In this document: piece by piece, positions 7,565 through 40,649 of the stretch | Position numbering within the stretch: the stretch's first letter is position 1 | How the letters are laid out: every line of letters begins with the position of its first letter | Assembly: GCA_964629085.1 (NCBI GenBank) | Contig: CAZVPR010000002.1 | Location: 20,428-84,427, forward strand | Length of the DNA: 64,000 nucleotides | Origin: an uncultured Anaerolineales bacterium | GTDB taxonomy: Bacteria; Chloroflexota; Anaerolineae; Anaerolineales; UBA11858 | Direction of reading: 5' to 3' | Made by a program: the position numbers and the translations under genes | Notes under the pieces: model-generated | Told to the model about the DNA's origin: nothing | Databases searched by the model: none | The model's input: only the letters and a program-made list of their open reading frames with translations

Positions 7565-9586
7565 ATGAAACAAGGAAAATCATCCAACTTGCTGCGGATT
7601 TTGGTCGCGGCAATGGTATGGGTATTGGCTTTTGCCATGTCGGCCTTCAATGGTCAGGCTGGGCCAGTACTGCAAGAGGAAGACCCCTATTTAGAAATTA
7701 TCAACGAAACCGAAACAACTTTGTGTTTATTCGGCGCCGTGCCCGATGGGGTAACTGAAATTGCCGAAGAGCATATTATCGCCGAACAAGAACTCGAATC
7801 TTATGACGATTTCTGGCTGGAAACCGGCCTGGAAGGTACCTTTACATTGATTGCAACCGATTGTGATGAATATTCGATCGTCGCTGAGGCCCCGGGAGTC
7901 ATTTTGGGGCAGGTGCCCGTCGTCTGGTGGGTCGGCTATGAAGTGGAATACCTGGGCGATGTTGTCGAGACTGAAGAGCAGGCGCCTGTTGAGGAAACAG
8001 AATCCAGCTCCACGGAATCCGCCGGCACCGGTTCTGCTGAAGTCAGCGCTGGCAGCGCCGACAGCGGCTTCCGCCCCGCGAGCCACGGCTTCAGTTTCGA
8101 AAATTATGGTGACAATATCCAGGTTGAGAACCTGACCGCAGTCGAGATGCAGCGTCTGTTTGGCGATAAGGTTTGCGCCAGTCAGGCCGGTGGTGAGTGC
8201 ATCTTGACGCCACCCGCCAAGCAGTGGATGAAAGAAATCAACAATTATATGGCCGGCGGACACTGTGAGGGTATGGCCGTGCTCAGTCTGTTGATGTACA
8301 GCAACCACGTCAATCCAGGCGACTTTGGTGCCACCAGCACGTATGATCTTTCCATAAACAACGAGGCTTTGCAGCGCGAGATCGCGTATTGGTGGACTAC
8401 GCAAGCCACCTGGCCAGCCGCAGCGGTAAAAATTAACGAATCGCCTCAGGCCGTCGTGAATGCCTTGATCGAAACCTATACCTCGTATCCTTCTCCAGAG
8501 GAAGAATGGGTTATGGGCATTTATATGGCCGACTTCAGCGGTGGCCATGCCATTACGCCCTTTGCCGTAGAAGATAAAGGAGAAGGCATCTATCATATTT
8601 TGGTCTATGATAACAACTGGCCCGACCAGAGCCGCGTTGTGGAAGTGGATTACGATGCCAACACCTGGCGCTACCAGGCTTCTACCAACCCTAACGAGCC
8701 CGAGTCGCTCTACGAAGGTGATCAAAGCACCCAAACCCTGGAGATCGTGGGCATCAACCAGCGCATGATGCAGCAAGAATGTGATTTCTGCGCCGGTGGT
8801 GGTGCTTCAGGCCAGATTCGTGGCGGGCGAGGCCTGGCGGCTGCCTCGCAAGAATTCAACCAGATCTGGCTCAACGGTCAGGCTGACCTGCAAATCATTA
8901 CTGAAGACGGCCAGCGCATCGGCTTCTTCGATGGTGAATTCATCAATGAGATTGAAGGCGCTCGTGGCGACAATATGAAGTTTGGCGTCGATATCTGGGA
9001 CATCAACAACGAGCCGGTCTATTTCATCCCCCTGGGGATTCAGTTCTCCATCACCGTGGATGCCAGCCGCGCTACTGAAGGCATTACCAATGATGTGGTC
9101 ATGATCGGCCCCGGATACGATCTGGTGGTTGCTGAACTTTACCTTGACCCAGGCACGTCCGACACGATCACCGTCTCTCCCGATGGCACCTTGCTGGCTT
9201 ACAGCACCGAGTACAACGACGCCCCGGACATGATCTTCGGCGTCGAGACTCCGGCAGCCGACTACGAATTCATCGTCGCCGCGCTGGACATCGAATCGGG
9301 CGCTGAGTTTGTCATCGAACTGGATATGGACGCAGGCTATCTGAGCGTCAACACGGATAACACGACCGAATATGGCGTCTACGAGATCGTCATGTACCGC
9401 ATCGACGATGAGGGCGAATCCTGGTTCAGCAATGACGATATTTACATGGAACCCGGCGATACCAGCTACTTCCTGTTCAGTGAGTGGGAAGGCCCTGGCA
9501 GCAGCTTATTCATCGACATCGACTACGGCAGCGATGGCTCTATCGATGAGAGCATCGAGTTAGCAGATGAGTACGAAGCTGAGTAA
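7565..9586 (+). CDS. Exported protein with a cryptic papain-like Cys/His/Asn pattern and a very acidic C-terminal region (function unknown)
   Basis: ATG 7565 is preferred over the track's 7523, which lies inside the -10 hexamer. Signal peptide MKQGKSSNLLRILVAAMVWVLAFAMSAFNG. Blocks GGHCEGMAVLS, SGGHAITPFAV and ILVYDNNWP occur in the order and spacing of clan-CA peptidase catalytic residues. Confidence 0.6.
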   Translation: MKQGKSSNLLRILVAAMVWVLAFAMSAFNGQAGPVLQEEDPYLEIINETETTLCLFGAVPDGVTEIAEEHIIAEQELESYDDFWLETGLEGTFTLIATDCDEYSIVAEAPGVILGQVPVVWWVGYEVEYLGDVVETEEQAPVEETESSSTESAGTGSAEVSAGSADSGFRPASHGFSFENYGDNIQVENLTAVEMQRLFGDKVCASQAGGECILTPPAKQWMKEINNYMAGGHCEGMAVLSLLMYSNHVNPGDFGATSTYDLSINNEALQREIAYWWTTQATWPAAAVKINESPQAVVNALIETYTSYPSPEEEWVMGIYMADFSGGHAITPFAVEDKGEGIYHILVYDNNWPDQSRVVEVDYDANTWRYQASTNPNEPESLYEGDQSTQTLEIVGINQRMMQQECDFCAGGGASGQIRGGRGLAAASQEFNQIWLNGQADLQIITEDGQRIGFFDGEFINEIEGARGDNMKFGVDIWDINNEPVYFIPLGIQFSITVDASRATEGITNDVVMIGPGYDLVVAELYLDPGTSDTITVSPDGTLLAYSTEYNDAPDMIFGVETPAADYEFIVAALDIESGAEFVIELDMDAGYLSVNTDNTTEYGVYEIVMYRIDDEGESWFSNDDIYMEPGDTSYFLFSEWEGPGSSLFIDIDYGSDGSIDESIELADEYEAE

Positions 9587-9601
9587 AATCTTAGTTTAAT
9601 A

Positions 9602-9691
9602 ACAGGAGTTACGCATTTGAGTTTGTATTTATCGAAAATTGACCCTTCGATACGCATTCACTACTCATGATGCGAACTGCATAACTCCTGT
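9602..9691. repeat. Long imperfect hairpin between convergent genes
   Basis: ACAGGAGTTACGCA (9602-9615) pairs with TGCATAACTCCTGT (9678-9691) with 1 mismatch in 14 bp. It lies between the stops of the 7565..9586 and 9765..11411 genes. Confidence 0.6.
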
Positions 9692-9764
9692 CAATAAACA
9701 ATATACAAGACCCTTTGGGAAACAAAATCCCAAAGGGTCTTTATTTATCACGTCAACTTACAGC

Positions 9765-11411
9765 TTACCAACCAACCGGGTCATTGACGACATCGCCGCG
9801 CGGCCACCAATTCAGGTTGATGCCTTCAACCAATTCCATGGCCCCCACCATAACAGGAATATTACTTCCATTACCATCGACATGCCCGCCGATCAGGTCA
9901 TATTGGGTGTAAGCATCGATGTAATAAGACCCAGGCGGCAGATCAAAGATAGTGTAGACACCGGCATCTTGTGCTGTGCCAAGCCAATACCAGAAACCGG
10001 TTTCCACGTTGGTTGCTACGATGTGCATTGGCGGAGAAGGTGCTACCGGGTAATTGGTGAAACCGGTGAGACCACCTGTTCCCGTCTGAGGTTCTGTTGC
10101 CGTCAGGGGCGAGATATAGATATAGATTTCATAATCAACCGGTTCGCTGGCAATCGATTTGACATCTATGTAGTACTCGCCATCTTGGGGCAAAATACCC
10201 TGCCAGCTTGAAGTAGCGGGATAATCCATATCCATGGGTGGCGTACCTTTCACGCCAATATCCATGACCACATTTTCGCGTGCTTCAACTCCATTTTTTG
10301 TCACAAATACGTCAACCAACATCTCTTGCCCTTGCATGGCGTAGAGCACATAGTCGTGAAGTTCACTTGGCTCCAGCCTGTTGTACATGGTGATATCTGA
10401 TGCCCCTGGTGCGAATGAAACCTGGAACTGCTCCGACAGGAATTCTGTCTCCGCTGTAGCAGCTCCCAACACATCCTGAGCGCAAATCAACATCGCTGTG
10501 ACAACGATCTGTTCGGGTTCAAGCGCGGCCAGACAATTGCCAATAGGCCCATCGATGCCGGAACACAGTTGAATATCTAGTGGGTCGACGGATGTAAATA
10601 CTTCACAGGTTTCATTATCACGCATGAAGCAAGACATTGAAGCTGTAGGTCCAAATCCACCATAGCCCAGGCAGGGCATGGTCATGTTTTCTGTCCAACC
10701 CTGACTCAGCATTATGCCTTGCAGCACTTCATAAACACTGTGAGCACCATCATAATGGAGGCCTTCCCCCAAACCAAATACCTGACAGCCTTTGCCTGTC
10801 TGCCCGCTCCAACTTTGATCGATAATGATGCCATCACTGATCCCCATGGGGATTCCCAGTGAGGCTTCAGCAGCCACTTGCAAATTCATGCAATGATCAT
10901 CCAGGGGTTGGAGTGCTTCACCCAGAAGGGCTGCCTTACATTCTGCAGTTGGTCCAGGAACTTCTGGGTACAGCCCATCGGGCGTAGCCGGGATGCCAAA
11001 CATCGGCCCACAATCTGAGAAACTCGGTGGTGCCAGTACGATGTCCATAACTGTTTGGCCAGCAGCAACGGCTACAATGCCCAGGTCCCAACCATCCGCT
11101 GAGGGGTAACCGATCCCCATGCTGGCGAAGAGCAGATATTCCCCAGGGGGTACTTGCAACGAAAAAGTACCCACGGTAGCGCTTTCCAGTGTTTCTGTGA
11201 AGACCCAAACGCCGGTTACGGGGTCCAGTGCGTAAACGGTCATGGCTGGGGTTGGAGCCGCATGTAAGTGCACCGTACCTGTGATCGTGCCCGGCTGACC
11301 CTCGGTATTGGCGTTGGCTGCTAATACGCCCGGAAATGTTGTCATCGCCATCAACAGCAGTGCAAGTAGGCTAAGCAGAATCGTTAGGGTTCGTAAATTC
11401 TTCGTGGTCAT
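9765..11411 (-). CDS. Exported Cys-rich hypothetical protein with carboxypeptidase-regulatory-like beta-sandwich ends
   Basis: 548 aa. Signal peptide MTTKNLRTLTILLSLLALLLMAMTTFPGVLA. The N-terminal (GTITGTVHL...GEYLLFA) and C-terminal (VYTIFDLPPGSYYIDAY) segments resemble CarboxypepD_reg-type domains. The central region has more than 10 Cys. Confidence 0.55.
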   Translation of the reverse strand: MTTKNLRTLTILLSLLALLLMAMTTFPGVLAANANTEGQPGTITGTVHLHAAPTPAMTVYALDPVTGVWVFTETLESATVGTFSLQVPPGEYLLFASMGIGYPSADGWDLGIVAVAAGQTVMDIVLAPPSFSDCGPMFGIPATPDGLYPEVPGPTAECKAALLGEALQPLDDHCMNLQVAAEASLGIPMGISDGIIIDQSWSGQTGKGCQVFGLGEGLHYDGAHSVYEVLQGIMLSQGWTENMTMPCLGYGGFGPTASMSCFMRDNETCEVFTSVDPLDIQLCSGIDGPIGNCLAALEPEQIVVTAMLICAQDVLGAATAETEFLSEQFQVSFAPGASDITMYNRLEPSELHDYVLYAMQGQEMLVDVFVTKNGVEARENVVMDIGVKGTPPMDMDYPATSSWQGILPQDGEYYIDVKSIASEPVDYEIYIYISPLTATEPQTGTGGLTGFTNYPVAPSPPMHIVATNVETGFWYWLGTAQDAGVYTIFDLPPGSYYIDAYTQYDLIGGHVDGNGSNIPVMVGAMELVEGINLNWWPRGDVVNDPVGW

Positions 11412-12079: not shown

Positions 12080-14350
12080 ATGACTACAGGAACACAAACC
12101 CTACCAACCAATACAGCCCGATCACAGGCCATGTCGATCAATTATCAAAAGATCATCGGTGTGGTAAGTCTGTTAGCCATTATCCTTCTGGGCGCGTTTT
12201 TTCGATTTTACAAACTTGGCGCTTACACCATTGGAAATACCTATTATGCGGCCGCAGTCAAATCGATGCTGACCTCCTGGCACAATTTCTTTTTCGTTTC
12301 CTTCGAGCCAGGTGGCACTGTGACGGTCGATAAGCCCCCCTTGGGATTTTGGGTTCAAGCGATTTCCGCCTACTTTTTTGGAGTCAATGGCTTTGCCCTG
12401 GCCTTTCCGCAGGCCCTGGCCGGGACGCTTTCCATCCCGGTGCTCTACCATCTGGTGCGCAAAAATTTCGGCATTTGGGCCGGGCTGATGGCAGCCCTGG
12501 TTCTGGCGTTAGTCCCTGTGACCATCGCCACCGAACGCAACAATACCATCGACGGGTTGCTTGTCTTCGTGCTGCTGTTGGCAGCCTGGGCTTTTCTCAA
12601 AGCTACTGAAACTGGTAAAACCCGTCATTTAATTCTGGGCGCAATTCTGGTGGGTCTGGGATTCAACATCAAGATGCTGCAAGCCTACATGGTGCTGCCG
12701 GCGTTCTATGCGCTGTATCTCTTTGGCGCTCGCAATGCCTGGTGGCAACGCATCCTACAGCTTGGCGCAGCAACCATCGTTTTGCTGGCGGTGTCCTTCG
12801 CCTGGGTGATCGCCGTTGACCTGACCCCTGCTGACCAGCGTCCTTATATCGGCAGCAGTGATAACAATACGGTTATGGAACTCATCGTCGGGCATAACGG
12901 ATTGAGCCGTTTGGGATTAAATGATAATCGCGGCCCCGGTGGGGGGGATGGCCCCAGGGATGGCGCTGCTCCCGGGGGCAATGCGAACCTACCTCAGGCG
13001 GGCTTCACCCCTCCCGGGCAGAATTCTGCTCCCGGTGGGAATCAAACCAATAACCGTCGACCGCCACAAGAAGCCTTCGATGCCTGTACAGGGCTGGCAG
13101 TTGGGGATGCCTGCACCGTCGACCTCCCTAATCAAGCTATAGAAGGCATCTGTTTTGCCCCCTCGCAAAATGAACTGGTCTGTGCTCCAGAAGACAGGCT
13201 GCCGCAACAGGCCAATGCCAATGCGCCCGGGCAGTTCCAACCGCCCTCCGGGGGTAACGGTCCAGGGAATGATGGCCCCGATGGAAACCGAGGCCCATCG
13301 ACAGGCGCAGGACAGCGCAATATGAACGGCGGTGAGACTGGGCAAGCGGGCGTACTGCGTCTGTTCGCAGAACCCCTGGTCACCGAGACCAGTTGGCTGC
13401 TCCCCCTGGTGCTTTTAGGCTTGCCTGTTGGTTTGATTGCTGCGGGCTGGTCATGGCCGCTGAACGGCAAACACAAGAGCATCTTGCTCTGGGCTGGTTG
13501 GCTGCTGCCTGCCATGGCATATTTCAGCTTTACCACGGGGTTGTGGCACCGTTACTACCTGATCATGTTGGGGCCGCCCATCGCTGCACTAGTTGGCATC
13601 AGCCTATGGAGCCTGGCAAAACACTGGCAGAAGAATCCCACCCTCGGTTGGATCCTGGCTGCCCTGCTGACCAGCCTGACCATCATCTTCGAAATCTACA
13701 CCTTCCAAAATTACCCTGATTATTCCACCTGGGTGAGCGTGATTTCCATCCTGATCGGGCTGGCAGGAATCGGCTTCCTGGCCATCAGCAAGTTGATCCC
13801 TCTGCACAAAATCGGCTTGAGCCTGCTGTTGCTGGCCATGTTGGTGGCCCCTTTCGCCTGGTCATTGCTGACCACACTCAACACCAACCCCAACGTAGGT
13901 CTGCCCACCGCTGGGATTTCAGCCTCCGACCAGACTCGTTCATCCTTCATGACCCCAGACGTATCTACGCTCAGCGCCAATGGGCAGGCAATTTTAGAAT
14001 ACACATTGGCCAACTCCGAACCCGACAATTATTTGCTGGCAACGCTCAATGCCCGCGGTGCAGCGCCCTATCTTCTGGAAAGCGACCGTAAAGTGCTGAC
14101 CTTCGGCGGCTTCGGTGGCCGTGATGACGTGATCGATCTGAATGAATTGATCGCTATGATCGATACTGGCGAACTACGCTACATCCTGGGCATCCCCCAA
14201 CAGAAACAGGAGATCGCTCAATGGATGGTCAATAACTGCTCCGTCGTAGACATTCCTGGCGTGACAGTCACAAATTCAGCCAATAATCAGAACAATCGCC
14301 CCGGACCTGGCGGGCAATCCAGTGAGGTGCTTTATGACTGCGGAAAGTAG
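12080..14350 (+). CDS. GT-C fold glycosyltransferase, family 39/83 (PMT/ArnT-like) with a large low-complexity insertion
   Basis: 756 aa with many TM helices. VDKPPLGFW motif in the first external loop. SD AAGGAG at 12068-12073. A G/P/N/Q-rich insertion of about 145 aa (nt ~12915-13350) contains the 4-Cys module PPQEAFDACTGLAVGDACTV...LVCAPED. Confidence 0.75.
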   Translation: MTTGTQTLPTNTARSQAMSINYQKIIGVVSLLAIILLGAFFRFYKLGAYTIGNTYYAAAVKSMLTSWHNFFFVSFEPGGTVTVDKPPLGFWVQAISAYFFGVNGFALAFPQALAGTLSIPVLYHLVRKNFGIWAGLMAALVLALVPVTIATERNNTIDGLLVFVLLLAAWAFLKATETGKTRHLILGAILVGLGFNIKMLQAYMVLPAFYALYLFGARNAWWQRILQLGAATIVLLAVSFAWVIAVDLTPADQRPYIGSSDNNTVMELIVGHNGLSRLGLNDNRGPGGGDGPRDGAAPGGNANLPQAGFTPPGQNSAPGGNQTNNRRPPQEAFDACTGLAVGDACTVDLPNQAIEGICFAPSQNELVCAPEDRLPQQANANAPGQFQPPSGGNGPGNDGPDGNRGPSTGAGQRNMNGGETGQAGVLRLFAEPLVTETSWLLPLVLLGLPVGLIAAGWSWPLNGKHKSILLWAGWLLPAMAYFSFTTGLWHRYYLIMLGPPIAALVGISLWSLAKHWQKNPTLGWILAALLTSLTIIFEIYTFQNYPDYSTWVSVISILIGLAGIGFLAISKLIPLHKIGLSLLLLAMLVAPFAWSLLTTLNTNPNVGLPTAGISASDQTRSSFMTPDVSTLSANGQAILEYTLANSEPDNYLLATLNARGAAPYLLESDRKVLTFGGFGGRDDVIDLNELIAMIDTGELRYILGIPQQKQEIAQWMVNNCSVVDIPGVTVTNSANNQNNRPGPGGQSSEVLYDCGK

Positions 14351-14786
14351 AACAAGTAACTTGGAAGGTGATAAAAACCTCCCAGGTTTAGAAACGATCA
14401 TTCAAGCCATCAAATATGCCACTGTAGGCGTATCCAACACGCTCATCGACGCGGCAGCTTACTTTGCCCTCACCCGTTGGCTGTGGCTGGGATCGCTGCC
14501 GGTGTTAGCCAAAGGAATAGCCTATGCCATCGGCATGGTGAACAGTTTCTACTGGAATCGAAATTGGACCTTCAAAAGTAAGGGCACGATATATCGTGTC
14601 CCAACCTGGAAGGCGGCTTTCCTGTTCACCCTGACACACATCGCGGCCTTGGGAATCAATGCTGGCGTGATGTTCTTGGGGCTAGAAGTCTTGGCGTTGA
14701 GTGAAATTCTCTCGCTAATTCTGGCAACCGGTGCTGCCTTCGGCTGGAATTTTATTTTGAACAAGTTGGTCGTTTTCAAGGCATGA
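14334..14786 (+). CDS. GtrA-family membrane protein (polyprenyl-phosphate-sugar flippase-like)
   Basis: 150 aa from ATG 14334 (SD GAGG 14324-14327), overlapping the GT39 stop. 4 TM segments and the YAIGMVNSFYWNRNWTFK signature of GtrA-like proteins. Confidence 0.8.
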   Translation: MTAESRTSNLEGDKNLPGLETIIQAIKYATVGVSNTLIDAAAYFALTRWLWLGSLPVLAKGIAYAIGMVNSFYWNRNWTFKSKGTIYRVPTWKAAFLFTLTHIAALGINAGVMFLGLEVLALSEILSLILATGAAFGWNFILNKLVVFKA

Positions 14787-14899: not shown

Positions 14900-15631
14900 A
14901 TGAAATCTTTATCCATTGTCATACCCGCTTATAATGAAGAAGCCAATCTGCACACCACCATAGCAGAGATATCCAGCGTGCTCTCTGACATGCCTATTGA
15001 TTATGAAATTATCCTGGTCAATGACGGCAGCCGCGACCGTACTGGAGAAATTGGCCGTGCGTTAGCCAAATCTGTGTACAACTTCCGTCTGGTAGAGCAT
15101 TACCCAAACCGCGGTTATGGCGGGGCGTTGAAATCTGGCTTCGACGCCGCGCAAAAGGAGTTGATCGCTTTCTTCCCCGCGGACAACCAATTCCACTTTG
15201 GTGAGATCATTGTCCTACTTGAACGCATGATCGTGACAGAAGCGGCTATTGTCTGCGGCTACCGTGCTCCTCGGCGCGATCCCTTGATGCGTAAAGTCAA
15301 CGCTTTTGGTTGGAACATGCTTGTCAGGGTATTATTTGGATATCTATGTCGTGACATCGATTGTGGTTTCAAACTCTTCCGGCGCGATATTCTCAACTGT
15401 GTGAACATCACATCTGATGGCGCGCTGATCGATACCGAATTCTTATCCAGCGCCCGACGCCTGGGTCTTCGCATCGAAGAGGTACCCGTGACTCACCGCC
15501 CGCGTGTTGGGGGCGAAGCAACGGGCGCAAATCTGCCTGTGATCATCAAAGCATTTCGCGATTTATGGAAATTGCTGCAGGAGCAGGCTGCCAATAACGG
15601 CTACCTGAAATGGCGTTTTGGATTACGGTAG
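14900..15631 (+). CDS. Family 2 glycosyltransferase, polyprenyl-phosphate sugar synthase type (DPM1/GtrB/ArnC-like)
   Basis: 243 aa. LSIVIPAYNEE, VNDGSRD and the FFPADNQ acidic motif of GT-A family 2. SD AAGGAG lies just upstream. Confidence 0.85.
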   Translation: MKSLSIVIPAYNEEANLHTTIAEISSVLSDMPIDYEIILVNDGSRDRTGEIGRALAKSVYNFRLVEHYPNRGYGGALKSGFDAAQKELIAFFPADNQFHFGEIIVLLERMIVTEAAIVCGYRAPRRDPLMRKVNAFGWNMLVRVLFGYLCRDIDCGFKLFRRDILNCVNITSDGALIDTEFLSSARRLGLRIEEVPVTHRPRVGGEATGANLPVIIKAFRDLWKLLQEQAANNGYLKWRFGLR

Positions 15632-15677: not shown

Positions 15678-16610
15678 ATGACCAATAAATCTTCTCTTTC
15701 ACGGCGAGATTTTCTCGGCTTGATGGCAATGGGCGGATTCAACTTGACTTTTGGGAAGGCTTTACTAACGCTTACAGGCACCCAAGCCACATCAACGGGA
15801 ATTGATATGGCCATAGCCCGCGCGACCAGTTACAAACCGGCTGCCCTGGTTGAAGCAGCCATCGCCGCGCTGGGCGGCATGGAAAACTTCGTCAAGCCGG
15901 GCGATCATGTCATCATCAAGCCCAATATCGTCGCTGCCGATTATTCCTATGAATATGCGGCTTACACAAACCCTGAAGTGGTCGGCGCGCTCACGGCGCT
16001 GTGCGTCGCTGCTGGCGCCGGAAGTGTGCGTATGATGGATTCCCCTTCCACTAGCTCCGGTGAACAGGCTTACGCCCGCAGCGGCATCGGCGAGGCAGTG
16101 AAGGCAGCCGGTGGTCAAACCGAAGTCATGAGCCAGATCAAGTTCCGCAACGTCGATATTCCCGAGGGGCGCGATATCAAAAATTGGACGATTTATGGGG
16201 ATGTGCTCGATGCGGATGTGCTCATCAATGTGCCAATTGCCAAACACCATTCACTTGCCAAACTGACTCTGAGCATGAAAAACCTGATGGGTGTGATCAC
16301 AGATAGGGGAAAATTTCACCGCAAATTGGGGCAGCGCCTGGCCGATCTGGCCAGCCTGGTCCGTCCCACGCTGACGATTATGGATGCGGTCAACATCCTG
16401 ATGAATCGCGGCCCGCGCGGCGGCAACCTCAACGACGTCAAAGCGATGAACACAATCATTGCCAGCCAGGATTTCGTTGCCACTGGGGCCTACGCGGCCA
16501 CGTTCTTCGGCAAGACCGGCTCAGATATCGACGCACTGCGCCTCGGTGCTGAGATGGGGCTGGGCAGCCTCGATCTGAACGGCCTTTCGATCGAAGAAAT
16601 CAGCGTTTAA
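15678..16610 (+). CDS. Tat-exported DUF362-domain protein
   Basis: 310 aa. Twin-arginine signal SRRDFLGLMAMGG. The VKPGDHVIIKPNIV and PIAKHHSLAKLTLSMKNLMG blocks are typical of DUF362. Confidence 0.7.
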   Translation: MTNKSSLSRRDFLGLMAMGGFNLTFGKALLTLTGTQATSTGIDMAIARATSYKPAALVEAAIAALGGMENFVKPGDHVIIKPNIVAADYSYEYAAYTNPEVVGALTALCVAAGAGSVRMMDSPSTSSGEQAYARSGIGEAVKAAGGQTEVMSQIKFRNVDIPEGRDIKNWTIYGDVLDADVLINVPIAKHHSLAKLTLSMKNLMGVITDRGKFHRKLGQRLADLASLVRPTLTIMDAVNILMNRGPRGGNLNDVKAMNTIIASQDFVATGAYAATFFGKTGSDIDALRLGAEMGLGSLDLNGLSIEEISV

Positions 16611-33325: not shown

Positions 33326-33356
33326 TTTGGCAAGTTTATTCGTAAAGGAGCAAACC

Positions 33357-34973
33357 ATGAATATCAAAAAGAAAACTCTATTCGCAGCAATGGCATTCGT
33401 TTTTGCGATAACAGCAAGCAATCTCGTTTTTCCTCTGGTCACTGTCGTTGCCAAAACCGTCGAAGCCATACCAGAAACAGAGCCTTCAGGCGATGTTGAA
33501 ACTCAGGACGCGGCGATATTCAGTTACCCCATCGTCGACACCGGACAAGAATACTGCTACAGCGATAACGGCAGTATCCCTTGCCCGGAGGATGGACAAT
33601 CGTATTACGGCCAGGATGGTCAGGTGATCGGCAATCAAGCCCGCTACCAGGATAACGGCGACGGCACTGTGACCGACCTAGTGACCGGTTTGATGTGGCA
33701 GCAGGACCCCGGCGAAAAAATGACCTATGCCGAAGCCGCTTCCGGCGCGGACAGCTTCAGTTTGGCGGGCTACAATGATTGGAGATTACCCACCATCAAA
33801 GAGCTGTATTCGTTGATTGATTTCAGCGGCACCGATGTCAGCCGCTGTGTTGAAGAGGGCACCTGCACGGGCAACCCCTTCATCGATACTGATAATTTCG
33901 ATTTCGAATATGGGGACACCGCCGCCGGAGATCGCATCATCGACTCGCAGTGGGCTACCAGCACGATTTACGAAGGCAGTGTTATGAACGGCTCCCAGGC
34001 CATGTTCGGGGTCAACTTCGCCGATGGTCGCATCAAGGGCTACGGCACGGGAGTAGGCCGCGGCGGTCAAGCAAAAGGTTTCTTTGTGATCTACGTACGT
34101 GGGAACACGAGCTACGGAGAGAACAACTTTGCCGACAACGGCAATGGTTCGGTTACCGATAACGCTACTGGCCTGACCTGGATGCAATCCGACAGCGCCC
34201 AAGGCTTAGACTGGGAAGAAGCTCTCAATTATTGCTCGAGCCTCGACTATGCCGGGATCAGCGATTGGCGGCTGCCCAATGCTAAAGAGCTGCACAGCAT
34301 CGTCGATTACAGCCGCTCTCCAGACACAACCAACTCAGCAGCCATCGATCCAATCTTCAATGTAACTTCGATTACCAACGAAGCTGGTCAGACCGATTAC
34401 CCCGCTTTCTGGAGCAGCACGACCCACGCAAACTCCAATGGAATGACAGGCGCCGGTGTATACATCAACTTTGGTCGCTCGATGGGCAACATGAACAACA
34501 ACTGGATGGATGTGCATGGTGCTGGCGCACAACGCGCTGAAATGAAAAGCGGTGATCCCTCCATCTATTCAACCGGCCACGGGCCGCAAGGCGACGCCGT
34601 TCGGGTCTACAACTACGCTCGCTGTGTGACCGGCGGCACGACGGATGAAGTGATCACCGGCGGTGAGATCGACCCCAACGCTGTTGCCAATTCAGAATTC
34701 GCAAGTGGGTCGCCGCAGGCGCAAGCCGGTCAACAGACTGGGCAGCCCTCGGGAAATAATCTGGCCGGCGCGGCTGGCAGCAACCAGCTTTCCCAGTCCG
34801 GGCCGCCTCAGGAAGCCATTGATGCCTGCACCGGTTTGAGCGCAGGCGCCACTTGCTCCGTAGGCCCTGGCAGTGGAACCTGTGAGAATATCCAGAATCA
34901 ACTAGTTTGTGTGCCGGAAGGCGGCCCTCCGGGAGGAGGGCAGGGTCCACCCCAAGGAGGTGGGCAGCCATAA
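33357..34973 (+). CDS. Exported DUF1566 (Lcl C-terminal domain) protein ending in the 4-Cys module
   Basis: ATG 33357 is preferred (SD AAGGAG). Signal peptide. Two DUF1566 blocks (TGLMWQQD...DWRLPTIKELYSL; TGLTWMQSD...DWRLPNAKELHSI). A Q/G/N linker is followed by PPQEAIDACTGLSAGATCSVGPGSGTCENIQNQLVCVPE. Confidence 0.75.
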   Translation: MNIKKKTLFAAMAFVFAITASNLVFPLVTVVAKTVEAIPETEPSGDVETQDAAIFSYPIVDTGQEYCYSDNGSIPCPEDGQSYYGQDGQVIGNQARYQDNGDGTVTDLVTGLMWQQDPGEKMTYAEAASGADSFSLAGYNDWRLPTIKELYSLIDFSGTDVSRCVEEGTCTGNPFIDTDNFDFEYGDTAAGDRIIDSQWATSTIYEGSVMNGSQAMFGVNFADGRIKGYGTGVGRGGQAKGFFVIYVRGNTSYGENNFADNGNGSVTDNATGLTWMQSDSAQGLDWEEALNYCSSLDYAGISDWRLPNAKELHSIVDYSRSPDTTNSAAIDPIFNVTSITNEAGQTDYPAFWSSTTHANSNGMTGAGVYINFGRSMGNMNNNWMDVHGAGAQRAEMKSGDPSIYSTGHGPQGDAVRVYNYARCVTGGTTDEVITGGEIDPNAVANSEFASGSPQAQAGQQTGQPSGNNLAGAAGSNQLSQSGPPQEAIDACTGLSAGATCSVGPGSGTCENIQNQLVCVPEGGPPGGGQGPPQGGGQP

Positions 34974-34974
34974 A

Positions 34975-35038
34975 CCCTCACCCCTTCTCGCTTGCGCTTG
35001 ACTCCCTTCTCCCAATGGGAGAGGGGCTGGGGTGAGGG
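34975..35038. repeat. Dispersed hairpin repeat family B, copy 2 (intercistronic)
   Basis: CCCTCACCCC (34975-34984) and GGGGTGAGGG (35029-35038) are exact reverse complements. The interior CCAATGGGAGAGGGGC is shared with 7321-7394. Confidence 0.85.
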
Positions 35039-35055
35039 CAAAAAAGGAGCTTGTC

Positions 35056-36636
35056 ATGAAGAAAAAACCCTTTACCATTCTAACCATTCTGCTCAGTTTA
35101 TCGATCCTGGCCTGTGTATTTGCAGAAACCGTTGCCGGACAAGTACTCACAGGCGCCGATGGTCATCGCCAGGACGCTGATATCTCTGAGAGTACTGATA
35201 ATAATTCATCCATCCCCCTTCTCCTGGATTTTCCCACAGATACTTCACAAGCCAGCAATCAAATCACAGACGGGTATTACCTCTTTTCACCAATTCGCTC
35301 TACCGAGACCTACCTGATGGACTCCAATGGAGTGGCTGTTTTCACCTGGCAGAGCGATTACACTCCCGGTCACGCGGTCTATTTCTTAGATAACGGCAAC
35401 CTGCTGCGATCCGGAAGCCTGGGCCGCGGTACCTTCAGTGCCGGCGGCGTGGGCGGGGTCATTCAGGAGGTCGCCCCCGATAACAGCGTGGTTTGGGAAT
35501 TCCAATACGCCGATGGCCTGGTCCAACAGCACCACGATATCGAGCAATTGCCCAACGGCAACATTCTGTTGATCGCCTGGGAGTTGAAGACCCGAGAAGA
35601 AGCTATCGCCGCCGGACGTGACCCCAGCTTGCTAGATGAGGGCGAACTCTGGCCGGATCATGTTGTTGAGGTGGATCCTGCCACCCATGAGATCGTCTGG
35701 GAATGGCATGTCTGGGACCACCTCATTCAGGATTACGACTCCAGCAAGCCTAACTATGGCATGGTTGCGGACCACCCTGAACGGATCGATCTCAACTATA
35801 CCGTCAACCGTAAAGCTGGTGCCGATTGGAACCACACCAACTCGATCGATTACAATGCCGACCTCGACCAAATCATCCTCAGTGTGCTGGGGTTCGGCGA
35901 GATTTGGATCATCGACCATAATACGACTACGGAAGAAGCCGCTGGACCGGCCGGCGACCTGCTTTATCGCTGGGGTAATCCCGAGGCATATGACACTGGA
36001 ACCGCGCAGGATCAGCAACTTTTTGGTCAGCATGATGCCCAATGGATTCCCACTGAGTATCCTGGCGGCGGCAACATCTTGATCTTCAACAACGGCGACC
36101 GCCGCACGCGGGCTTACTCCTCCGTGGACGAGATTATGCCCCCCCTTAACAGCGATGGCAGTTATGCGCTCACAGCGGGTACTGCTGATAAGCCAGAGAC
36201 CACAACCTGGTCCTACGCTTCCCCCAACGATTTCTACGCCGATCATATCTCCGGTGCACAGCGCCTGCCCAATGGCAACACGCTGATCTGCAGCGGGACC
36301 GACGGGCGCTTCTTCGAAGTGACTCCCGCTGGGGAAATCGCCTGGGAATACAATTATGGCGCCGAGGTCTTCCGGGTCTCGCAGATCGCTGCCGATCATC
36401 CTGGTTTGGCAAGCCTAGCTCTGCAACCTGGTGATGTGCTGATCGGTGAGAGTGGTGTTCGAAACCAAAGCTCTGGGGGCCAACTCCAGGACAATGGTTC
36501 CCCTCCGCAACCGGCGATAAACGCCTGCAATGGCTTGGTCGAAGGAGACGCCTGCACAGTTCAACTACCCAAACGGACGGTAAACGGTTCTTGCCAGACT
36601 ATTCAGAACCAATTGGCCTGCGCACCAGACGGATAA
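35056..36636 (+). CDS. Exported arylsulfotransferase-like beta-propeller protein ending in the 4-Cys module
   Basis: ATG 35056 (SD GGAG). Signal peptide with a lipobox-like ILAC. The blocks DNGNLLRSG, VQQHHDIEQLPNGNILLIAWE, NHTNSIDYN and LPNGNTLIC resemble the ASST beta-propeller family. The C-terminus is PPQPAINACNGLVEGDACTVQLPKRTVNGSCQTIQNQLACAPDG. Confidence 0.55.
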   Translation: MKKKPFTILTILLSLSILACVFAETVAGQVLTGADGHRQDADISESTDNNSSIPLLLDFPTDTSQASNQITDGYYLFSPIRSTETYLMDSNGVAVFTWQSDYTPGHAVYFLDNGNLLRSGSLGRGTFSAGGVGGVIQEVAPDNSVVWEFQYADGLVQQHHDIEQLPNGNILLIAWELKTREEAIAAGRDPSLLDEGELWPDHVVEVDPATHEIVWEWHVWDHLIQDYDSSKPNYGMVADHPERIDLNYTVNRKAGADWNHTNSIDYNADLDQIILSVLGFGEIWIIDHNTTTEEAAGPAGDLLYRWGNPEAYDTGTAQDQQLFGQHDAQWIPTEYPGGGNILIFNNGDRRTRAYSSVDEIMPPLNSDGSYALTAGTADKPETTTWSYASPNDFYADHISGAQRLPNGNTLICSGTDGRFFEVTPAGEIAWEYNYGAEVFRVSQIAADHPGLASLALQPGDVLIGESGVRNQSSGGQLQDNGSPPQPAINACNGLVEGDACTVQLPKRTVNGSCQTIQNQLACAPDG

Positions 36637-36757: not shown

Positions 36758-36801
36758 CTGAACAGCTTCTAAGCAATTTCTGAACAACCTTTTGCTATGC
36801 T
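36758..36801 (+). promoter_or_regulatory. Activator-box promoter 3: three in-phase repeats CTGAACA / CTAAGCA / CTGAACA plus TATGCT hexamer
   Basis: Repeats start at 36758, 36769 and 36780 (11-bp phasing). The 9-nt spacer ACCTTTTGC precedes TATGCT (36796-36801). ATG 36842 has SD AGGAGG. Confidence 0.6.
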
Positions 36802-36841
36802 TATAGCAAGATACCAAAGCACGTGTATGCAGGAGGATGTC

Positions 36842-38299
36842 ATGAACAAGAATTTATTTTTCATCATGGTTTTAGTTAGCGCTTTGTTTATTGCACAAAT
36901 GGCGTGCTCAATACCCGGCTCATCCGAGGCACAGGTTGAAGGCTCCCAGCCTGTCAATGCGCTGGAAGAGAACGAAGAGGAAGGAATAGCAGATGTACCA
37001 GCGGCAACACAAGCACCTTCTCCACAACCGGGCCAGGGCAACAATCAGCCGGGCGGCGGCCAACAAAATCAGGGCAACCAGGGCAATAATCAACCGGGTG
37101 GTGGTCAACAACCGCAGGGAAACCAACCCTGCCAGGATGGCTTCATCGCCAATGGCAACATTGCCAACGGGCAAGTATTCGAATCAGACGAGAGTTTTCA
37201 AGTGATTTGGACATTGGAAAATACCGGCAATTGCACCTGGAACAGCGGTTATGTTCTGAAGATGCTTGGCGGCGATATTATTACTTCAGAAAGCGAACTA
37301 GCAGTGAGTGCAACGGTAAACCCTGGGAACACGACCACCCTTTCAGTAGACATGCAAGCCCCCTCAACGCCAGGCAATTATGTATCCGCCTGGAAAATGA
37401 CCGATGGACAGGGCCATGCCTTTGGGTTGGATTCTCCCCCTAATGCTCCCTTGCGGGTAGCTATCAAAGTCATCCCGGCAGGCAACCAGGGCAATCAATC
37501 CAACCCCACCCCCGAAGCGAATCCCGATGCGGCAGTAACCGGGAGCGGGCAAACCTTGCTCGACGGGCAGTGCTTCGACCTCAACAGCGGCCAGGAAGTC
37601 GCTTGCAACAACAGCGCCGCCGATGTGATGTATCAGTTCAACCCGGTAACCAGCGGAAAATTCCATGGCCAGAACAACACCAACCTGGCCAACAACCGTG
37701 ATGAAGAGCCCGATAAAGCAACTTGCGAAGCAGAAACGTATCCGCCCATGGCGCATTCAGCACTGGAAGACAAGTACTTTTGCTTCCAAATCAACAATAT
37801 CGTCAACACTACCTACGGCTGGATGCGAGTCGAACGCTTCGATCAAGACGGCGTCACCTTCGATTTCATGACCTTCAAGACTGACCCGCCTGTCGCTCAG
37901 CCGATCAACCCCAATGCCCTCTTCGTCGAGAGCCAGGGTGATCAGGTTACCATGTTAAAAGGCGAATGCTTCGATGTAGGGAATGGCCAACTCAACGAGC
38001 AGTGCACAGGCGTTTTCGCCGGCTTCCTGTACGAAGAAACTACCAAACGAAATATCACTGTCATGCAGATCAACCCCAGCGAAGTTACATATGCAGCTGC
38101 TTTGAGTTTTGAACCAAACAAATCGGATTGTGAAACTGCCAGTTATAACCAATCCCCTATCTGGCCCATCAAAGAAACGGAATACTATTGCTACCAATTC
38201 ACATCGGGAATCAATACTCATTACGGCTGGCTGCGCCCGACTTATTTTGACACCAACGGCATGACCTTTGATTATCTGACCTGGCAGGCGATGCCATGA
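36842..38299 (+). CDS. Exported protein: NBR1-FW-like Ig domain plus two copies of an unnamed 4-Cys ~120-aa domain
   Basis: ATG 36842 is preferred. Signal peptide and a Q/G/N-rich linker. WTLENTGNCTWNSGYVLKMLGGD...PGNYVSAWKMTDGQGHAFG matches the NBR1-like bacterial Ig fold. The C-terminal halves repeat: GQCFDLNSG...TYGWMRVERFDQDGVTFDFMTF and GECFDVGNG...HYGWLRPTYFDTNGMTFDYLTW. Confidence 0.55.
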   Translation: MNKNLFFIMVLVSALFIAQMACSIPGSSEAQVEGSQPVNALEENEEEGIADVPAATQAPSPQPGQGNNQPGGGQQNQGNQGNNQPGGGQQPQGNQPCQDGFIANGNIANGQVFESDESFQVIWTLENTGNCTWNSGYVLKMLGGDIITSESELAVSATVNPGNTTTLSVDMQAPSTPGNYVSAWKMTDGQGHAFGLDSPPNAPLRVAIKVIPAGNQGNQSNPTPEANPDAAVTGSGQTLLDGQCFDLNSGQEVACNNSAADVMYQFNPVTSGKFHGQNNTNLANNRDEEPDKATCEAETYPPMAHSALEDKYFCFQINNIVNTTYGWMRVERFDQDGVTFDFMTFKTDPPVAQPINPNALFVESQGDQVTMLKGECFDVGNGQLNEQCTGVFAGFLYEETTKRNITVMQINPSEVTYAAALSFEPNKSDCETASYNQSPIWPIKETEYYCYQFTSGINTHYGWLRPTYFDTNGMTFDYLTWQAMP

Positions 38300-38409: not shown

Positions 38410-39105
38410 ATGAACAAAACCATCCTCGTCGTAGACGACAAAGCCAATGTGCGCACCCTCTTGCGGGAATATCTGACCGAAGAGGGTTTTCACGTTGTGA
38501 CGGCCGAGAACGGCCAGGAGGCGCTATACGTCGCCCGCCACGAAAAACCCGATCTGGTCATCCTGGACATTATGATGCCCGAAATGGGCGGCTATGATTT
38601 CCTGCGTGCCTACCGCAAAGAGCAAGATACGCCGGTGATCATGTTAACCGCCAAGATCGAAGAATCCGACAAAGTACTCGGTTTAGAACTGGGCGCCGAC
38701 GACTACGTCACCAAGCCATTCGGCATGCGCGAGATTGTCGCCCGCATCCGGGCCGTGCTGAGGCGCACCGGCCAGACCGCGCCCCCCTCCGAGGTGCTGC
38801 GCGGTGCCGATATCACCCTCGACAAAGGAGGCCATACCGTCAAAGTCGGCGACGATTTCATCGACCTGACTCCCTCTGAATTTGATTTACTAGCCGTACT
38901 GCTGGAATCCCCAGGGCGAGTCTTCTCTCGACTGGATTTACTGGAAAAATTGCAGGGCACCGCTTTTGAGGGCGTGGAACGAACCATCGATGTCCACATC
39001 CGCAACTTGCGCACCAAGATCGAACCCGACCCCAGCCAGCCGCGCTATATTGAGACCGTTTTCGGTGTGGGATACCGATTCGGAGCGGGGAGCAGTGAGC
39101 GGTAA
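38410..39105 (+). CDS. OmpR/PhoB-family response regulator
   Basis: 231 aa. Receiver domain (ILVVDD, phospho-Asp in LVILDIMMP, LTAK) and winged-helix output (LTPSEFDLLAVLLESPGRVFSR..., IETVFGVGYRF). Confidence 0.95.
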   Translation: MNKTILVVDDKANVRTLLREYLTEEGFHVVTAENGQEALYVARHEKPDLVILDIMMPEMGGYDFLRAYRKEQDTPVIMLTAKIEESDKVLGLELGADDYVTKPFGMREIVARIRAVLRRTGQTAPPSEVLRGADITLDKGGHTVKVGDDFIDLTPSEFDLLAVLLESPGRVFSRLDLLEKLQGTAFEGVERTIDVHIRNLRTKIEPDPSQPRYIETVFGVGYRFGAGSSER

Positions 39106-39164
39106 GCCGAGAGCATTTGACCCTCATCCTCACCACTCTCCATTGTCCACTTCCCACTAAAATT

Positions 39165-40649
39165 ATGCGCTCATTAACTCCCAAACTACTGCTCGCCTTT
39201 GTCTGTGTCAGTCTGACGGTGGCAGTATTAGGCGCGGCGATCATTCGCTATACATCCCAAAAAGAATTCGAGGATTTAGCACTCAATAACGCCCGCAACA
39301 ATTTCATCAATCGGGCCAGTACCTATTACCGTACCACCGGTTCCTGGGAGGGCTACGCACCGATATTCTTTGGCCAGACCGCGGCTCAGGCGCAGAATCA
39401 ACCCAACCAACAGAGGCCCCCCCTCCAAGGGCAACCGCAGAATCAACCCCCAAATCAGCGTCCACAAGGTCAACCTGAACCTGATCCCAATGATCAACAA
39501 AGGCAACAAGGTCTCACATTTATATTGGTTGACGTGGATGGACGCATTGTGATTCCCGTGCGACCGTACCGAGTGGGGGAATTCGTGCCGGATGAGTTGC
39601 TTTCGGATAGTATCGACATTGAAATTCGCGGCGAGGTGGTTGGTAGCGTGATTACCCTCGGTGAGTTACCTCCCCTGGATCAACGCGAACTGCGTTTCCT
39701 GGAGCGCACCAATAATTCACTGATTTTCGCAACCCTGGGTGCCACCGCCATCGCCATGATCATCAGTTTGGTGCTGACGCGCGGCCTGACACGTCCGCTG
39801 CGAGAATTGACCGGCGCTATTCGATCGCTCCCTCAGGGCGGCATGGGCCAGCAGGTAAGCGTGCGAACCAGGGATGAGATCGGCCAACTGGCCCAAGCTT
39901 TCAACCTGATGAGCGCTGATCTGGCTCGGCTCAGTGAACAGCGCCGCCAAATGACTGCCGATATAGCCCACGACTTACGCAGCCCGCTGACTGTCATTGG
40001 AGGATACATCGAATCGATGCGCGATGGTGTACTACAGCCCACGCCCCAACGATTGAACGCCATTCACGATGAAGTGCAGCATCTGGAGCGCCTGGTAGAA
40101 GACCTGCGCACGCTTTCCCTGGCTGACGCCGGAGAACTCTCACTCAACCTGGCATCCATCTCGCCGGCCGGATTGCTAGAACAGGTCCAGGCTGCTTATC
40201 AGCACGCCGCCGAACGCAAGAACCTGACATTGGCGACGAGTGCCAATGGCAGACTGCCTACCTTCAATGCCGATCCCGACCGCATCATGCAGGTATTAGG
40301 CAACCTGGTCAGCAATGCCATCCGACATACGTCCGAAGGAGGAAAGATCAGTGTGCAGTGTGCAGTGTTCAGTGAGCAGGTGGCCTTTAGCAGTCAGCAG
40401 CCCTTCTCCCGTCATCCGTCCTCAGTCATCTTCACCATCAGTGACACGGGCTCTGGAATTCCCGCCGATGATTTGCCTCGCATCTTCGACCGTTTTTACC
40501 GTGTGGACGACTCGCGCCACGGCGGGGAGGGCGAATCCGGGCTGGGGCTGGCGATCGCCAAATCAATCGTCGAGATGCATGGGGGTACAATTGGGGTCGA
40601 GAGTGAGTTAGGGCGAGGGACGACCTTCACCATTTCATTACCCCTCTAA
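39165..40649 (+). CDS. Sensor histidine kinase (2 TM, Q/N/P-rich periplasmic domain, HAMP, HisKA, HATPase_c)
   Basis: ATG 39165 is preferred. H-box IAHDLRSPLT, N-box LGNLVSNAIRHT, and G-boxes DTGSGI and GLGLAIAK. Extra residues lie between the N-box and the G1-box. Confidence 0.9.
   Translation: MRSLTPKLLLAFVCVSLTVAVLGAAIIRYTSQKEFEDLALNNARNNFINRASTYYRTTGSWEGYAPIFFGQTAAQAQNQPNQQRPPLQGQPQNQPPNQRPQGQPEPDPNDQQRQQGLTFILVDVDGRIVIPVRPYRVGEFVPDELLSDSIDIEIRGEVVGSVITLGELPPLDQRELRFLERTNNSLIFATLGATAIAMIISLVLTRGLTRPLRELTGAIRSLPQGGMGQQVSVRTRDEIGQLAQAFNLMSADLARLSEQRRQMTADIAHDLRSPLTVIGGYIESMRDGVLQPTPQRLNAIHDEVQHLERLVEDLRTLSLADAGELSLNLASISPAGLLEQVQAAYQHAAERKNLTLATSANGRLPTFNADPDRIMQVLGNLVSNAIRHTSEGGKISVQCAVFSEQVAFSSQQPFSRHPSSVIFTISDTGSGIPADDLPRIFDRFYRVDDSRHGGEGESGLGLAIAKSIVEMHGGTIGVESELGRGTTFTISLPL

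Follow-up and report, generated by a model that had tools for sequence, protein, structure and literature searches.

Introduction

At the position of external loop 4 (EL4), ArnT, a family GT83 glycosyltransferase with 13 transmembrane (TM) helices, has a short loop that is not known to carry an inserted domain. Protein O-mannosyltransferases (PMTs) have 11 TM helices, and the MIR domain of the eukaryotic enzymes is a β-trefoil, several times larger than the 49-residue module that is the subject of this report. MIR is held in EL4 of the eukaryotic PMTs and is implicated in acceptor handling, and bacterial PMTs have been described as being without that fragment (PMC12331936). In the PMT of Mycobacterium tuberculosis, a WW-like C-terminal hairpin of EL4 binds proline-containing acceptor peptides (PMC12331936). 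A three-component layout has been reviewed for Gram-positive envelope glycosylation, and YkcBC of Bacillus subtilis is listed there with its sugar and acceptor unknown (PMC8035078). The acceptor choice of bacterial PMT/ArnT-like enzymes of the GT-C class is largely unknown. The present analysis concerns a membrane glycosyltransferase gene of this class in a 64,000-nucleotide stretch of DNA from an uncultured marine Anaerolineae bacterium; the whole stretch is referred to as the window. A first-pass annotation of the window had pointed to an insertion of about 145 residues, containing a cysteine module, in an extracytoplasmic loop of the enzyme. The loop is identified here as EL4, and the cysteines belong to a predicted mini-domain held on two disordered tethers. 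With a probability of roughly 40%, this module is a tethered recognition (docking) domain that captures partners or acceptors of the enzyme.

Results

A PMT_2/YkcB-Like Enzyme of the GT-C Class

The gene lies at 12080–14350 on the + strand and encodes a YkcB-type protein of 756 residues, or of 739 residues from the ATG at 12131. The shorter form equals JGI protein P0001, which is found, identical and in unchanged gene order, on nine JGI marine-metagenome contigs. Residue numbers follow this form, except for the coordinates of Pfam matches, which refer to the 756-residue form. PMT_2 (PF13231) matches residues 84–242 (7.4e-33, 114.5 bits against a cut-off of 26.1) and YkcB_C (PF24878) residues 639–718 (6.3e-16, 58.5 bits against a cut-off of 27). 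An AlphaFold2 (AF2) model calculated from 116 homologues has a predicted local distance difference test score (pLDDT) of 81 and a predicted template modeling score (pTM) of 0.84. When the model was compared with the PDB by Foldseek, ArnT (5ezm) was the top match (E 8.6e-07), and STT3, AglB, PglB and Pmt1/2/4 were also found with a probability of 1.00. The two Pfam domains and the ArnT/STT3/PMT fold bear out the PMT_2/ArnT-like GT-C identity given in the first-pass annotation. The 116 aligned homologues are all from Chloroflexota, chiefly metagenome-assembled genomes (MAGs) of Anaerolineae. D67, K68, P69 and P70 of the D-K-P-P-L motif in external loop 1 are invariant among them, and the acidic residue of this motif is, from its role in the family, the putative catalytic residue.

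The assignment to family GT39 does not hold. Pfam returned just PMT_2, YkcB_C and a weak TMEM260-like match, with no PMT (PF02366) and no MIR in EL4, and the enzyme is placed in the PMT_2/YkcB-like subfamily instead of among the GT39 protein O-mannosyltransferases sensu stricto. The NCBI label "glycosyltransferase family 39" on these proteins is an automatic name. ArnT in the strict sense was also rejected, since the NCBIfam equivalog NF009784 scores 34.5 bits against a cut-off of 567, with residues 81–252 alone matching. No arn operon is present around the gene. Judged by its domain content, the enzyme is a PMT_2/YkcB-like GT-C, neither ArnT nor a PMT sensu stricto. In this YkcB-like subfamily a length of 650–800 residues is usual, contrary to the earlier remark that ArnT/PMT-like enzymes are considerably shorter.

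ArnT is the best match of known structure and is similar in its C-terminal soluble domain, in its donor from an ArnC-like GT2 and in its 13 TM helices, the number counted here. With the eukaryotic PMTs (Pmt1/2/4, POMT1/2), the window enzyme has in common the GT-C fold and the N-terminal TM core (Foldseek 6p25, 9i5k, 9e61), as well as a folded soluble domain in EL4 on the non-cytoplasmic side. Unlike the PMTs, it has 13 TM helices and a C-terminal domain and is matched by Pfam PMT_2, not PMT; its EL4 module bears no sequence or fold similarity to MIR. The M. tuberculosis hairpin is likewise a small β-structured EL4 element of a bacterial GT-C, and the putative partners in the present case have Pro-rich linkers. 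However, the hairpin is part of the conserved C terminus of EL4 and not a tethered insert, and the module has no WW signature.

Topology and Parts of External Loop 4

Thirteen TM segments were assigned from the AF2 helices and the positive-inside rule, with the 14-residue helix 70–83 taken as interfacial. The basic clusters VRKNF, KATETGKTRH, GARNAWWQR, GKHK, AKHWQK and SKLIPLHK fall inside, and the conserved polar motifs DKPPL, ERNNTID and FNIKMLQ outside. Residues 232–420 are preceded by TM7, running from inside to outside, and followed by TM8, running back; the flanks are basic (GARNAWWQR before TM7, GKHK after TM8). Because of this orientation, and because six helices lie between the loop and the external C-terminal soluble domain, residues 232–420 are assigned as EL4, facing outward. 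The extracytoplasmic location is well supported by sequence and model together, and the topology check therefore upholds the earlier placing of the segment between TM blocks in an external loop. The C-terminal soluble domain has one invariant Cys and one that is conserved in at least 90% of the homologues.

EL4, delimited by the AF2 helix list and the basic flanks, spans 12824–13390 on the + strand, as do its five parts in turn. The conserved N-terminal part (12824–12928; TPADQRPYIGSSDNNTVMELIVGHNGLSRLG) contains P238, G241, S242, S243, L251, H255, N256, G257, R260 and L261, which are invariant in the 116 homologues. It is followed by tether 1 (12929–13057, residues 267–309), the four-Cys mini-domain (13058–13204, residues 310–358) and tether 2 (13205–13333, residues 359–401). 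In the conserved C-terminal part (13334–13390; ETGQAGVLRLFAEPLVTET), G404, R410, P415 and L416 are invariant, and E402, A406, G407, L411, F412 and E414 are at least 90% conserved. Both tethers are predicted to be disordered (pLDDT <50) and are G/P/N/Q-rich. The Gly/Pro/Asn-rich flanks described previously are thus confirmed, with G at 20%, P at 16%, N at 12% and Q at 10% over the module-bearing homologues. The span marked in the first-pass annotation, 12915–13350, corresponds to residues 262–406 (LGLNDN...ETGQAG).

Residues 310–358 form a block of pLDDT 89–96 in the full-length model, with a short helix (313–318, the PPQEA helix) followed by a sheet of three strands (327–353). The same helix and three strands were obtained when the module was modeled alone with 40 module sequences (pLDDT 81.5). 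A Foldseek search of the PDB with the isolated model gave no significant neighbor; the best hit was NFAP2, a small disulfide-rich antifungal protein, which at E 0.44 was not treated as a structural relative.

Among 426 near-full-length domains, all four cysteines are present in 413, the second and fourth are both lost in 12, and only the fourth is missing in 1. As C2 and C4 disappear jointly in 12 of the 13 variant domains, we infer that C1 pairs with C3 and C2 with C4 in disulfides. The same variants make a Cys4 metal site unlikely.

Sequence and model thus describe a folded mini-domain, presumably stabilized by disulfides. Inserted within the disordered stretch of EL4, it would be held outside the membrane on two flexible tethers of ∼43 residues, between conserved EL4 segments that flank the active site.

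A Family-Wide Loop and a Clade-Specific Module

Four cysteines are found in the EL4 of 65 of the 116 homologues, where the loop has a median of 131 residues (range 110–188). In the other 51 it is Cys-free, with a median of 86 (range 54–116), and the loop is P/G/Q/N-rich in both groups. Counted by locus, the GT-C carries the module at 63 of 84 loci, of which 80 are genome loci collected around GT-C homologues, all Chloroflexota (59 of 80 with the module). Relatives from further afield were taken from plasmid and megaplasmid records. At the same site, each has a Cys-free low-complexity stretch: 106 residues in the YkcB of Bacillus velezensis, whose gene is followed by a GT2, 42 in Clostridium butyricum, 24 in Streptomyces and in Ca. 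Chlorohelix, and 21 in the archaeon Halocatena. The N-terminal motif of EL4 can be aligned in Bacillus, Clostridium, Streptomyces and Halocatena, and the G..RLF motif recurs across phyla. YkcB, for example, has the flanks R-P-[YF]-[IV]-G-S-S ... G-[YH]-N-G-x-x-R and G-x-x-R-L-F, which enclose a long low-complexity loop. It differs in lacking the Cys module and in having a loop of G/S/P instead of G/P/N/Q.

Since these relatives have the same EL4 flanks around a Cys-free stretch, the "145-residue insertion" is, on the alignments, of two parts: a disordered connector, variable in length and family-wide, and a module of ∼49 residues confined, as sampled, to a large Chloroflexota clade. A single lineage-specific insert is no longer tenable, as a loop of ∼85 residues is the family norm and an equivalent of 106 residues exists in B. 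velezensis. The observation named in the first-pass annotation as a refutation, an equivalent loop in homologues across phyla, has to this extent been made in part. The absence of such an insert from ArnT/PMT-like enzymes, as stated there, accordingly holds for the Cys module, which is clade-specific, and does not hold for the low-complexity loop, found at this site in every homologue examined (21–116 residues). The distribution indicates that the module was inserted long ago, midway in the low-complexity stretch of EL4, in one large Anaerolineae clade.

A loop so tolerant of length could harbor the module as a neutral or stabilizing passenger, a disulfide knot that was fixed for spacing or as a plug resistant to proteases and plays no part in specificity. 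Consistent with this, the loop varies from 21 to 188 residues across the family with no conserved sequence, 51 of the 116 close homologues do without the module, and the module is promiscuous and mobile, occurring in many architectures. The pattern of conservation argues otherwise. In the 64 module-bearing homologues, identity to the window protein is 0.74 in the N-terminal core, 0.57 in both the module and the C-terminal half, and 0.24–0.31 in the tethers; in the 36 most distant, the values are 0.68, 0.58, 0.47 and 0.17–0.20, respectively. Taken separately, tether 1 is 0.20–0.31 identical and tether 2 is 0.17–0.24 identical, with 34%–36% gaps. Over homologues of 50%–85% identity, then, the module is conserved like the C-terminal half while the tethers drift. 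Modules of the glycosyltransferase (GT) type also retain motifs of their own (LPNRD[VI][ED]G and C.P.DR), and several in situ duplications of the module have occurred, leaving two tandem copies inside EL4 in P0065, L047, L074 and L076. By these comparisons, the module is old and under selection, and a passenger without function is doubtful.

Three Module Copies in the Window

When a profile of the three modules quoted in the first-pass annotation was run against the six-frame translation, exactly three copies were found in the window, at 13049–13204 (E 2.7e-31), 34788–34931 (3.9e-25) and 36487–36633 (8.1e-30); the next best match had an E of 0.89. The second and third are the C termini of two secreted proteins encoded on the + strand: an Lcl_C (DUF1566) protein (33327–34973; Pfam Lcl_C 3e-44) and an arylsulfotransferase-like (ASST-like) β-propeller protein (35032–36636; Pfam Arylsulfotrans 2.9e-26). 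The sharing of the module with secreted proteins of the 33–38 kb cluster, noted earlier, is therefore real for these two. A third secreted protein of the cluster, at 36797–38299 between the ASST-like gene and a response regulator gene, has many cysteines and an N_BRCA1_IG (Ig-like) domain that follows a G/Q/N-rich linker; it is without the module.

Three copies within 64 kb might suggest that the GT-C captured its module recently, by recombination with a tagged gene of the same genome, and GT and tag modules show a small same-genome excess in similarity that points in the same direction. The nucleotide sequences speak strongly against this. Pairwise identity between the copies is 57%–62%, and identical residues use the same codon in 10 of 23, 5 of 24 and 6 of 21 cases. 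With so few shared codons, recent transfer among the window copies is rejected. Furthermore, the module holds the same loop position in 65 of the 116 homologues, down to ∼50% identity and from dozens of MAGs, and GT modules resemble each other (identity 0.57), as do tag modules (0.56), more than GT modules resemble tags (0.48). The domain capture suggested previously has, as a recent event, a negligible chance of being correct.

The same-genome excess itself amounts to a GT-tag identity of 0.50 within genomes and 0.47 between them (p 0.003 by permutation of genome labels), a comparison confounded by clade structure. It can be seen in the strand before the last Cys, which is QN[EQ]L in each of the three copies of the window and PPNS[ST]QL in both GT and tag copies of a second, freshwater clade (L041, L047, L067, L076, L102, L103). 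Such an excess is compatible with co-evolution or self-association of the modules, or with old gene conversion.

Module-Tagged Exoproteins beside the Glycosyltransferase

At other Anaerolineae loci, genes of the Lcl_C, ASST-like and YHYH families, often tagged, adjoin the GT-C, which makes the functional link proposed between the enzyme and the module-tagged proteins plausible. Directly 3′ of the GT-C and on the same strand, the gene is a module-tagged Lcl_C in L033, L034 and L076, a module-tagged YHYH in L041, L047, L053 and L067, and one or the other in L102 and L103. L076, from a MAG labeled Anaerolinea thermophila, combines its tagged Lcl_C with a two-module GT-C. Including untagged forms, Lcl_C orthologues adjoin the GT-C in L012, L017, L023, L030, L033, L034, L061, L065, L076 and L102, and ASST homologues adjoin GT-C/GtrA in L023 and L065; the Lcl_C or ASST genes beside the GT-C are untagged in L012, L017, L030, L061 and L065.

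Two of these neighbors are unusual. The Lcl_C orthologue beside the module-bearing GT-C of L017 (8006–9691) has no Cys module; two copies of a helical motif (AAAQLGVTEEALRAALG.PPPDF) form its C-terminal end. These repeats may be an alternative tag, and their PP..EAL..A start resembles the first helix of the module. In L023, the module of the Lcl_C protein (8531–9865) is N-terminal, directly behind the signal peptide, and leads into a linker rich in Thr and Pro (PTATATPSTTPTPTATPTPTPTPTPSTSTAS), as is typical where proteins are O-glycosylated; the adjoining GT-C is without the module.

Such a linker raises the question of whether the module or its tethers are themselves acceptors or pseudo-substrates, glycosylated in cis by the enzyme that carries them, with the tag marking secreted substrates. 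The tag and similar linkers are indeed common to the enzyme and the neighboring exoproteins, and Thr is frequent in the CTV/CSF strand. However, the tethers are G/P/N/Q-rich and poor in Ser and Thr, no Ser, Thr or Asn is invariant in the module, and free modules abound at loci that have no GT-C. Self-modification of this kind therefore seems improbable.

A Large, Unannotated Family of Secreted Modules

The module, of ∼50 residues, has the signature PP-x-E-A-[LIV]-x-A-C, ∼8 residues, C, ∼10–14 residues, G-x-C, ∼7–11 residues, [LV]-x-C-x-P. In an alignment of 30 sequences (A1), P5, A11, C12, C21, G32, C34, C44 and P46 are invariant; with 40 sequences (A4), P5, A11, C12, G32, C34 and P46 remain so, and at least 90% of the sequences retain C21 and C44. 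A word-indexed homology search with the module profile yielded 28 small proteins only. The size of the family became apparent when 1.84 billion cluster representatives were searched exhaustively with the profile and 2519 proteins were found at E ≤ 1e-3 and 592 at E ≤ 1e-10; the former are protein clusters at 50% identity, a lower bound for the size of the family. Many members are tandem arrays of 2–27 units. Others, of ∼80–95 residues, consist of a signal peptide and one module and occur in Myxococcota, Bacteroidota (Mesonia mobilis) and elsewhere. The extracytoplasmic placing is borne out for free, tag and GT copies: signal-like N termini in the free module proteins (∼80–130 residues), hydrophobic N termini in the tagged proteins of the window, and EL4 in the GT copy. 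P0219 (444 residues, five module-like repeats) looks eukaryote-like in its composition and KDAPTDAPKD-repeat linkers.

Pfam and NCBIfam scans of the three window modules, the 40 module sequences and the free or arrayed module proteins gave no family above threshold, and a sequence search of the PDB with the module profile gave nothing under E 1. DUF7406 (PF24155) had one sub-threshold match (22.6 bits against 28.4), to residues 39–59 of the tandem-array protein P0188, and none among the 40 module sequences; it was not accepted as the family of the module but might be a distant relative. A WW domain was rejected, as the module has no Trp/aromatic signature, no WW appeared among the PDB fold matches, and the three-stranded topology is all that is common to both. 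A carbohydrate-binding module is less likely because no aromatic residue is conserved in the alignments. Taken together, the searches and models describe an autonomously folding α/β mini-domain with two predicted disulfides, one member of a very large family of secreted modules that has no annotation.

Free Modules and Two-Component Systems

Scanning metagenomes for the module pattern turned up 79 loci, often short. The module is carried by a GT-C, as the EL4 insertion, at 18 loci, fused to Lcl_C at 7, to YHYH at 5 and to ASST at 1, and is free or arrayed at 54. Ten free module genes directly precede an unfused gene for Lcl_C (6), YHYH (3) or GT-C (1). Thus a free gene of ∼120 codons is followed by unfused Lcl_C in L104, L105, L116, L125, L153 and L161 and by YHYH in L129, L143 and L171, with L085 (Mesonia mobilis) a further case; all are loci outside the Chloroflexota. 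In Anaerolineae, the module is fused to the C termini of proteins from these same Lcl_C and YHYH families. This "Rosetta stone" pattern of fusion and neighborhood suggests that the module forms a functional unit with Lcl_C or YHYH independent of the glycosyltransferase.

Downstream of the tagged genes in the window, Pfam identifies an OmpR-type response regulator (RR; 38410–39105, + strand) and then a HAMP histidine kinase (HK; 39117–40649, + strand). The same pair of genes occurs in 29 of the 79 metagenome module loci, typically divergent from a free module gene. Loci with an RR and HK beside the module include L085, L089, L091, L094, L104, L105, L111–L113, L115, L125, L128, L138, L147, L156 and L171, and L113 repeats the layout of the window with an extra tagged YHYH gene (tagged YHYH, tagged Lcl_C, tagged ASST, RR, HK). 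The window HK is 28%–30% identical to HKs next to free modules, partly over the sensor region. Its predicted extracytoplasmic sensor region (∼residues 85–125) has a Q/N/P-rich low-complexity stretch (QAQNQPNQQRPPLQGQPQNQPPNQRPQGQPEPDPNDQQRQQG) like the GT-C tethers and the linkers in the tagged proteins, and the external proteins of this organism seem to favor linkers of this kind in general.

The divergent layout resembles cpxP-cpxRA or zraP-zraSR. CpxP and ZraP are small periplasmic, all-helical LTxxQ proteins without disulfides, encoded divergently from envelope-stress two-component systems. The free modules are likewise small signal-peptide proteins (∼80–130 residues) divergent from an OmpR-RR/HK operon, although they are unrelated to CpxP and ZraP in sequence and predicted fold. 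By this analogy, sensing a small ligand, an ion or a redox signal in the envelope could be the general role of the module beside two-component systems. In the GT-C, the module would then be a sensor or regulatory unit that switches the conformation of EL4, gating the activity of the enzyme without recruiting any protein. In ArnT-like enzymes, PL4/EL4 is mobile and becomes ordered upon substrate binding. The divergent arrangement is found at 23 of the 54 stand-alone loci and at 3 of 4 loci looked up individually, an RR-HK pair adjoins a module-bearing GT-C in L094, L156 and L166, and the RR and HK genes of the window lie 3′ of the tagged genes. Several properties of the module fit a sensor poorly. 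The joint loss of cysteines points to structural disulfides and not to a metal site, no His, Met or acidic cluster is conserved, and arrays of up to 13–27 copies better suit a role in scaffolding or avidity. In addition, the 43-residue disordered tethers would mechanically decouple the module from the catalytic core. Gating by a bound signal is thus unlikely, though of the alternatives considered it is the one with most in its favor.

Genes Adjoining the Glycosyltransferase

The start of a GtrA-family membrane protein gene (14322–14786, + strand; Pfam GtrA_DPMS_TM 8.9e-26) overlaps the end of the GT-C gene. Next comes a GT2 polyprenyl-phosphate glycosyltransferase for donor synthesis (14900–15631, + strand; Pfam Glycos_transf_2 6.2e-28), for which the closest families in NCBIfam, each scoring below its cut-off, are ArnC, AglJ, PpgS and dolichyl-P hexose transferase. 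The GT-C/GtrA pairing is kept at most related loci, often with the GT2 adjoining. This gene order and these domain assignments identify the GT-C as the extracytoplasmic transferase in a polyprenyl-phosphate-sugar glycosylation system of three parts (GT-C, GtrA and GT2), the YkcBC type. The Bacillus ykcBC locus has the same PMT_2 plus YkcB_C architecture and adjacent GT2 gene but no separate GtrA gene.

Divergent from the GT-C and upstream of it, 9765–11411 on the − strand encodes a secreted, Cys-rich protein of 548 residues with CarboxypepD_reg-like domains and without the module; this synteny is retained on the JGI contigs L001–L003. The GT2 gene is followed 3′ by a DUF362 gene (15678–16610; Npun_F2552-like, sub-threshold) and a gene for a protein with multi-4Fe-4S ferredoxin domains (8531–11046 in L001). 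DUF362 again follows the GT2 in L007 and L009.

Discussion

The tentatively preferred reading is that the module captures partners or acceptors and would hold them near the catalytic face of the GT-C. The Lcl_C, YHYH and ASST-like exoproteins, which bear the module themselves or have a free module gene next to their own, are the most economical candidates and thus the likely partners. Capture might proceed by association of module with module, or through a ligand bound by all module carriers. In function, the module would then be a counterpart of the MIR domain of eukaryotic PMTs, in the same loop and without homology to it.

Several observations weigh against recruitment by the module. Its presence in the GT is not strictly correlated with its presence in the neighboring protein: the GT of L017 has it and the neighbor does not, and in L023 the reverse is true. 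The full table (7/1/1/2) is small and phylogenetically non-independent. In the window itself, 19 kb separate the tagged genes from the GT-C, and the same-genome similarity signal is small, with clade structure as a confounder. Most free-module loci in other phyla have no GT-C nearby, which indicates that the basic function of the module is independent of the enzyme. The conserved positions of the module are chiefly structural (Pro, Cys, Gly, Leu, Ala and one Glu), and neither an aromatic nor a charged binding patch is obviously conserved. Finally, the acceptor of YkcBC-type enzymes is listed as unknown (PMC8035078).

A wider scheme would make the module a self- or partner-recognizing docking unit that defines an envelope system under two-component control. 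At the cell surface, free, arrayed and fused modules would bring together exoproteins of the Lcl_C (lectin-like), YHYH and ASST-like kinds, and the GT-C of Anaerolineae would have gained an EL4 copy of its own, by which tagged clients dock on the enzyme and are glycosylated. This scheme as a whole is regarded as rather unlikely. If true, it would amount to bacterial tag-directed protein glycosylation, convergent with MIR-assisted O-mannosylation.

No description of the module, or of an EL4-inserted domain in a bacterial GT-C (Chloroflexota included), was found in the literature, of which coverage was incomplete. The EL4 insertion is at most MIR-like in the way it works and is homologous to neither MIR nor WW. 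The unannotated module family and its two-component link are the more interesting by-product of the analysis: a domain family of at least 2519 clusters, without counterpart in Pfam, NCBIfam or the PDB, has a strong, unexplained tie to OmpR-type two-component systems in several phyla. For bacterial PMT/ArnT-like enzymes, a conserved, tethered EL4 domain offers a concrete hypothesis of acceptor recruitment, and the repeated occurrence of the same domain on or beside a small set of exoproteins supplies candidate partners.

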